This document shows positions 207 through 1,380 of a stretch of 7,669 bases of DNA, in pieces. Made by a program: the position numbers and the translations under genes. The notes below the pieces were generated by a model. It was not told the DNA's origin. It was given only the letters and a program-made list of their open reading frames with translations, and searched no databases. This DNA comes from Escherichia coli (GTDB lineage: Bacteria > Pseudomonadota > Gammaproteobacteria > Enterobacterales > Enterobacteriaceae): the NCBI RefSeq assembly GCF_003334335.1, contig NZ_QOWQ01000071.1. The stretch is one strand, 5' to 3'. The first letter of the stretch is position 1. Every line of letters starts with the position of its first letter.

Positions 207-1380
207 TCAGGCCACCGGTGCCGGGTTAAACACTGCCAGTTGGTTATGCAATCCCCATTGATCCGAGAGGGTTTTCTTCTTCCCGCTGGCGACGTCGAGA
301 ATAAAGTGGAACAACTTCCAGCCCACCTCTTCAATGGTTTCTTCGCCGGTAGCGATAGTGCCTGCGTTAATATCCATTAAATCAAACCAGTGGTTCGCCA
401 GCCCGGTGCGGGTCGCCATTTTAATGACGGGTACCTCCATCAGGCCGTACGGCGTACCACGGCCGGTCGTAAACACTTGCACGGTGATACCCGAAGCCAC
501 CTGTTGCGTGCCACAGACAAAATCGCTGGCTGGCGTCGCGGCGTAAATTAATCCGCGTTTAGTCGGGTGTTGACCGGGCGACAGCACTTCAACAATTGCG
601 GTTTTACCCGATTTAGCAATGGAGCCGAGTGCTTTCTTTACCACGTTGGCGAGGCCGCCCTTTTAGTTGCCCGGCGAAGGGTTGGCGCTGCGGTCGGTTT
701 TGCCCATATCGGGATAGTTATCGTATCAGGCCATCTCTTCGAGCAGACGCCTGCCCACTTCTTCATTGATGGCGCGTGGCGTTAACAGATGAATGGCGTC
801 GCGTACTTCAGTGACTTCGGAGAACATCACCGTTGCGCCGCAGCGCACCAGCAGGTCAGAGTCGTAGCCGACAGCGGGGTTAGTGGTAACGCCGGAGAAC
901 GCGTCGCTGCCACCGCACTGCATGCCCACCACCATCACTTCGCCACCGAAGTTTGGGTTCAGCGCAATATTATGGATGGTGCGAATTGGCACCACGGCGG
1001 CCGGTACATTAATCGCTACGCCACAGCCGTAGAGGTGGTTCAAGTCGACCACGCCGTCGATGCTCAGGTATTTCGGCAGCAGGTCGCGTTCGATAATTTT
1101 AACCACGTAGTCCTCAACGTCTGCCATGCAGTGAACGCTGGTGGTAATACCCAACAGGTTTTTGGTGCCCACGCTGCCGTCGGCGTTGCGGTAACCTTCA
1201 AAGGTGTAATCTTCCTGCGGCGGCTGCGGCTCCGGCACTTTGGTCGCCCGAGGCAGGGTGTTAAGCGGCGGCGCTTTCGGTAGCGTGACCGTGGATTCGT
1301 CGATCCAGCTGCCTTTGGCGACATCGCGTACCGTGTAACCGATAGCGAATGATTTCACCATTATGAGGAAGGTTGTTATC
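207..1380 (-). pseudogene. garD: garD-like D-galactarate dehydratase (UxaA/GarD altronate-hydrolase family), disrupted by two in-frame stops, a 5' frameshift, an apparent internal in-frame deletion and loss of the native N-terminus
   Basis: ORFs 726..1457(-) and 207..644(-) are in the same frame. They are separated by TGA (plus-strand tca 726-728) and TAA (tta 663-665), reading ...[46 protein letters not shown]..., with conserved family segments ([35 protein letters not shown]) on both sides. Near 1341 the conserved NGEIIRY is in a different frame from the following [18 protein letters not shown]. Around 927-935 the protein reads [19 protein letters not shown], which looks like a fusion of two motifs that are about 70 residues apart in UxaA/GarD as I recall them. 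The 5' boundary is uncertain. Confidence 0.8.

Follow-up and report, generated by a model that had tools for sequence, protein, structure and literature searches.

Does a broken garD mean that an Escherichia coli strain has ceased to depend on galactarate? The question is raised by a 7,669-nt stretch of E. coli DNA (hereafter the window), in which a first-pass annotation, made from the sequence alone, had recognised a garD pseudogene with at least four independent lesions and had taken it as a sign of relaxed selection on galactarate catabolism, consistent with the absence of the partner gar operon. The pseudogene is borne out, and five lesions were mapped in it relative to a functional homologue; the physiological reading is not. 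We hold with high confidence that the minus strand of window 207–1363 carries what is left of a galactarate dehydratase gene: a non-functional relic that travels as a passenger in an IS-rich E. coli genomic island, drifts neutrally and has no bearing on galactarate use.

The relic was identified by comparison with garD of E. coli K-12 (b3128, sequence from NC_000913.3). In tblastn searches, GarD residues 73–522 are matched by the minus strand of the window. At the nucleotide level, blastn returns two blocks, in which K-12 nt 845–1572 align with window 934–207 at 90.0% identity and K-12 nt 247–639 with window 1313–921 at 79.9%. As a whole, the pseudogene (207–1363, minus) corresponds to K-12 nt 186–1572 minus two deletions. 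It retains the original TGA stop at 207–209 (minus) and lacks garD codons 1–62 and 209–281. Window 729–1343 matches the NCBIfam galactarate dehydratase profile TIGR03248 with an E-value of 1.2e-98 (best stretch, profile 60–200), and window 210–662 matches it with an E-value of 1e-81 (profile 357–506). With scores of 330.9 and 274.9 bits, however, neither fragment reaches the curated cut-off of 730.85, and the relic is therefore not a full-length family member. Nor does it have an uninterrupted reading frame, which is broken by two in-frame stops and an 11-bp frameshift. The PGAP label reads ‘UxaA family hydrolase; frameshifted; internal stop; incomplete; missing N-terminus’; the relic is an ordinary passenger pseudogene that PGAP had already annotated. 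A literature search for a published account of it returned just general papers on islands and on the malX marker.

The lesions were placed using MAFFT alignments of the window with K-12 garD and with longer relic copies from other strains, and no continuous full-length match to intact GarD emerged. First, the 5′ end is truncated. Homology to garD begins at window 1363, equivalent to K-12 nt 186 (codon 62/63), and the sequence upstream is unrelated to garD; the first-pass annotation was right that homology ends here, although it had put the limit at about 1380. Second, an 11-bp frameshifting deletion (TATGGCGAAGT, K-12 nt 205–215; junction 1345/1344, minus), found in window-type copies only (see below), falls between …NGEIIR and IGYTVRD, is bounded by a TAT repeat, and accounts for the frame change suspected near 1341. 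Third, an in-frame deletion of 219 bp, or 73 codons (K-12 nt 626–844), has its junction at 935/934 (minus), close to the estimate of about 70 codons near 927–935. The junction is marked by the single copy kept of a 10-bp direct repeat, TGGTGGTGGG (925–934, minus), which, read on the plus strand, is the cac/cat stretch in which a short-repeat-mediated deletion had been proposed. In the undeleted, long-type relic copies TGGTGGTGGG stands at both ends of the segment, 218 bp apart, which agrees with that proposal; judged by its sequence, the junction bears the mark of a deletion between short direct repeats. Fourth, a TGA nonsense codon at 726–728 (minus) replaces the TGG of Trp351 and is common to every relic copy examined. 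Fifth, in the MAFFT alignment, a TAA at 663–665 (minus) replaces the AAA/AAG of Lys372 within …PSPGN-K-K. Both nonsense codons are thus where they had been reported.

In general, stops and frameshifts could be artefacts of sequencing or assembly that conceal an intact gene. Here this general possibility is the whole of the case, and three facts oppose it: 309 complete-genome records match, at ≥99% identity, window 700–1560, a segment that takes in the TGA and the two deletion junctions; a 61-mer that includes the TAA recurs without mismatch in 256 records; and the 5′ truncation is common to all copies. We therefore regard the lesions as real, and the chance that they are errors as negligible. 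Programmed recoding, either by selenocysteine insertion at the TGA or by programmed frameshifting, was rejected as well, in view of the 5′ truncation, the two different stops, the two deletions and the strain-variable nature of the lesions.

Having established the lesions, we turn to whose gene this is. Window 1–7605 is 99.97% identical (2 mismatches) to part of NZ_OZ039818.1, a near-identical relative that is not necessarily the source of the window. In that genome, the relic is surrounded by IS66, IS21, IS30, IS3 and IS4 elements, broken enterotoxin genes, malX, a MalY/PatB gene, pieces of kbaY-type aldolase genes, aga remnants and a second intact agaR. No garPLRK genes were found in the window or within 14 kb of the relic. 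The native K-12 order is garK-garR-garL-garP, garD, prlF-yhaV, agaR and kbaZ onwards, and NZ_OZ039818.1 has this arrangement at 650–673 kb, about 2.7 Mb from the island. There, garD is 1572 bp long (523 codons), has no internal stop, is 97.8% identical to K-12 garD, and is accompanied by garPLRK, prlF-yhaV, agaR and a complete aga operon. The window locus is therefore distinct from native gar: it is a second, partial garD copy inside an IS-rich island. That the native locus is intact was confirmed in this one genome, which departs from the window at the right end. There, window 7595–7669 jumps to sequence about 2.7 kb further on in NZ_OZ039818.1 (21606–24375 of the extracted locus, L001), at an IS30 edge, so the window’s strain lacks the transposase fragments and the IS66 copy found in NZ_OZ039818.1.

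These data bear on the reading that the relic is the strain’s own garD, in decay now that selection for galactarate catabolism has ceased. Multiple disabling lesions and a window devoid of gar operon genes are what such decay would produce, yet the locus lies inside an IS-rich island without adjoining garPLRK, the genome that shares window 1–7605 at 99.97% identity has an intact garD and the full garPLRK elsewhere, and the 5′ two-thirds of the relic differ by ~20% from each native garD of E. coli. Given this divergence, the relic is not an allele of native garD, and we consider decay of the strain’s own gene highly improbable. Since native garD and garPLRK are intact in the same genome, the relic is without bearing on galactarate use; the absence of the gar operon from the window is explained by the relic being a truncated island fragment, and not by decay of the pathway. 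A broken garD in this window should thus not be over-read as loss of galactarate catabolism.

The comparison with K-12 garD (b3128; TIGR03248/UxaA family) summarises how the relic relates to a working gene. Homology between the two extends from codon 63 through the stop codon, nucleotide identity is ~95% over the 3′ 430 bp of the relic, and the convergent arrangement with agaR is common to both. Unlike K-12 garD, the relic lacks codons 1–62 and a promoter, carries the 11-bp and 73-codon deletions and two nonsense codons, is ~20% diverged in its 5′ two-thirds, lies in a genomic island, and has neither prlF-yhaV downstream nor garPLRK upstream.

How widespread the relic is, and in what order it decayed, can be read from other genomes. 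At ≥80% coverage, it is carried by 499 of the 5426 complete E. coli genomes (~9%), in two types. The window type (≥99% identity) includes NCTC86, NZ_OZ039818.1, SCZE5 and one 37.9-kb plasmid record, whereas the long type (94–96% identity) includes Nissle 1917, ATCC 25922, JCM 5491 and UPEC132, where PGAP labels it ‘garD, pseudogene’. The long type shares with the window the truncation point, the upstream junction sequence and the Trp351 TGA, and on one side the same neighbourhood of agaR, aga remnant, malY and enterotoxin genes. It differs in retaining the 219-bp and 11-bp segments and Lys372, and in having its own E221 TAG, a 1-bp deletion (at nt 814) and a frameshifted agaR; on the other side it adjoins a fatty-acid-synthesis-like cluster, where the window has a DeoR-rbsK-fucP-epimerase cassette. 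Between the two types of relic, 34 of 1135 sites differ (3.0%).

Because the truncation point and the Trp351 TGA are common to all relic copies, these two lesions came first. Only the window type has the 11-bp and 219-bp deletions. The TAA is missing from the long-type copies and also from the window-type copy on plasmid pZ1323CEC0005_1-5, and this last absence makes it the youngest lesion. Such an ordering by comparison of related strains had been suggested along with the original observation. Private lesions continue the decay in individual lineages: besides the E221 TAG and the 1-bp deletion of the long type, Z1323MEC0001 carries a 48-bp deletion and the plasmid copy a 2-bp insertion, so that independent lesions have been added lineage by lineage. 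The relic therefore gives a dated order of decay events, in carriers that include the reference strains NCTC86, Nissle 1917 and ATCC 25922, and its lesions, whether shared or private, could be used to mark lineages of the island module.

The course of events that we draw from these distributions is held with the same high confidence. The relic belongs to a decayed second copy of the garD-agaR-kbaZ…agaS-kbaY neighbourhood, and its own promoter, start codon and first 62 codons were lost at a junction with island-type sequence. The Trp351 stop was gained before the known relic lineages split, with neutral drift thereafter. The window lineage then acquired the 11-bp frameshifting deletion and the 219-bp deletion between the 10-bp direct repeats, the latter by replication slippage or short-homology recombination; the Lys372 stop is its latest addition, and other lineages gained lesions of their own.

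The plasmid-labelled record deserves a separate remark. NZ_CP148478.1, a 37.9-kb circular molecule, contains the enterotoxin, the malY-like gene, malX, the aga remnants, agaR and the garD relic. This module may represent a piece of the island that was mobilised or excised, or else an artefact of assembly.

Whether the remnant still serves any purpose was judged from its substitutions. Two functional native garD genes differ at codon positions 1/2/3 by 2/0/32 changes, as opposed to 11/13/10 between the window-type and long-type relics (chi-square p = 0.81). This even spread, as against the pattern in the natives, indicates neutral drift since the split and a neutral substitution pattern since inactivation. 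By contrast, the 5′ tract of the relic that is foreign to E. coli (see below) differs from K-12 by 20/18/105, and its divergence therefore built up while the gene was still functional in another lineage. In the present copies, as far as sequence can tell, the garD relic is non-functional.

The alternative is that the remnant is retained because a fragment of it is useful, encoded by the 145-aa ORF at 207–644 or the 243-aa ORF at 726–1457, or because its DNA benefits the neighbouring agaR copy, for instance by providing a convergent terminator region. Persistence in ~9% of complete E. coli genomes and the intact state of the adjoining agaR in window-type islands would fit such retention, but the persistence is accounted for by hitch-hiking with the island. 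Moreover, the substitutions between relic lineages are even over codon positions, indels and stops differ by lineage with some falling inside these same two ORFs, and the 726–1457 ORF begins in unrelated sequence. We therefore think retained function very improbable, and favour a relic drifting neutrally as a passenger. In this respect it resembles the passenger pseudogenes of E. coli pathogenicity and genomic islands: like them, it is a truncated, IS-flanked fragment of a metabolic gene, redundant with an intact chromosomal gene, evolving neutrally and bearing strain-specific lesions. Nothing sets it categorically apart from that class, and its sole unusual detail is a mosaic of foreign and E. 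coli-like sequence.

The mosaic has two parts. The 3′ tract (207–630, minus) is E. coli-like, being ~4.3–4.7% diverged from K-12 garD (~4.3–5% over nt ~1150–1569), whereas the 5′ tract (700–1363, minus) is ~20% diverged from every native E. coli garD (nt 216 to ~1100 in the K-12 comparison). The maximum-likelihood breakpoint lies at K-12 nt 1078–1147, equivalent to window 630–700 (2dLL 65–84), and across the 5426 genomes the closest native E. coli garD to the foreign tract is ~80–81% identical. The same steps in identity recur along the island, where agaR and the 5′ end of kbaZ are 96–98% identical to their native counterparts and the kbaY/agaS remnants just 77–80%. In NZ_OZ039818.1, these gar-aga remnants (L001 12757–14125) combine a garD 5′ part and kbaY/agaS fragments at ~77–80% identity to E. 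coli with a garD 3′ end, agaR and a kbaZ 5′ end at 95–98%, and prlF-yhaV is absent between them.

The source of the foreign tract was sought in other enterobacteria. Among 80 listed GTDB loci (a translated scan, then blastn), no close nucleotide donor was found, the best identities to the foreign tract among the 80 matches listed being 82–88%, in Phytobacter, Kluyvera, Pseudescherichia and Enterobacter. At the protein level, the matches listed, which comprise short proteins only, gave no donor either, reaching at most 87% amino-acid identity at full coverage; those at 97–99% are fragments of the relic itself in E. coli. These values describe the loci and short proteins listed, beyond which a closer donor could lie. 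In Citrobacter, Enterobacter, Kluyvera, Lelliottia and Pseudocitrobacter, garD and agaR are ~70 bp apart without prlF-yhaV; the pair is present at every native E. coli locus listed, and in E. albertii ~1 kb, which we take to be prlF-yhaV, separates the two genes. The copy probably came from a non-Escherichia enterobacterium, an origin that would explain both the ~20% divergence and the garD-agaR arrangement without prlF-yhaV.

How, then, did parts of it come to resemble E. coli? On the basis of the identity steps, our preferred reading is that gene conversion by the resident locus replaced parts of an originally foreign gar-aga segment. The garD 3′ end and the agaR/kbaZ 5′ end would have been replaced in this way, later, from the resident native locus, and conversion tracts would stop at the prlF-yhaV heterology. 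Indeed, the E. coli-like tracts stop within a few bases of where that heterology would begin. The full proposition, that the island relic and the native gar-aga locus, ~2.7 Mb apart, exchanged sequence by gene conversion in tracts bounded by the prlF-yhaV insertion, is nevertheless put forward tentatively, with confidence well short of even.

The same identity steps would fit a copy that began as an E. coli garD-agaR-aga segment from a lineage without prlF-yhaV, into whose garD 5′ part and agaS/kbaY foreign DNA recombined before or during island capture, with no patching by the native locus. The spacer between agaR and the relic, which matches neither K-12 intergenic DNA nor any sampled species, is also compatible with such a beginning. 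However, with prlF-yhaV at every native E. coli locus listed, a donor lacking the pair is undocumented, and the E. coli-like tract ends near the prlF-yhaV heterology, as conversion tracts would. We consider this course rather unlikely. If gene conversion is indeed the explanation, the dead copy would be a recombination partner that could seed variation in, or rearrangements at, native garD and agaR, and the mosaic would illustrate, on a small scale, how an island copy and the resident locus exchange sequence.

The flanks of the relic also merit description. Window 1–144 (plus) covers the 3′ end of the second agaR, the copy borne by the island (PGAP agaR, WP_000072197.1; L001 13320–14144 in NZ_OZ039818.1), and window 1–126 is 97.6% identical to K-12 agaR. 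The gene runs convergent to the relic and its product is 5 aa longer than K-12/native AgaR. It appears intact, with 274 aa and 98% nucleotide identity to the native gene, which gives window-type strains two AgaR repressors; the copy is frameshifted in Nissle and JCM5491, whose islands are of the long type. The 62-bp spacer that follows is without the prlF-yhaV toxin-antitoxin pair of the native locus and holds a perfect 11-bp inverted repeat, read directly from the sequence (ATGCCCGATAA-7 nt-TTATCGGGCAT, 151–179), which was not flagged in a simple terminator and promoter scan of 1–1700, where nothing rose above shuffle expectation. The spacer gave no convincing alignment to the garD-prlF or yhaV-agaR intergenic DNA of K-12 or to the spacers of sampled species.

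On the other side, the place of garD’s promoter, ribosome-binding site and first 62 codons is taken by window 1364–1660. This sequence has no garD homology, is found in the JCM5491 copy as well, and belongs to a dispersed, island-associated repeat family with matches in 2441 of the 5426 genomes, annotated as hypothetical, ‘UCP030791 family putative phage-derived protein’, YagK/YfjJ or inovirus-type Gp2. No NCBIfam family was found for the sequence upstream of the truncation. One EDL933 assembly also has the repeat on a 287-kb plasmid. Further along, window 2341–2567 (plus) is labelled by PGAP as an ‘acetolactate synthase small subunit’/ACT-domain pseudogene; it has four stops in frame 1 and abuts a DeoR regulator gene. 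That gene opens a cassette at 2569–6946, encoding the DeoR regulator, a ribokinase-like kinase, a FucP-like MFS permease and an aldose-1-epimerase-family protein, which looks intact and recurs in strain S4 in a different island context, adjoining fecDE, IS3/IS600 and IS66.
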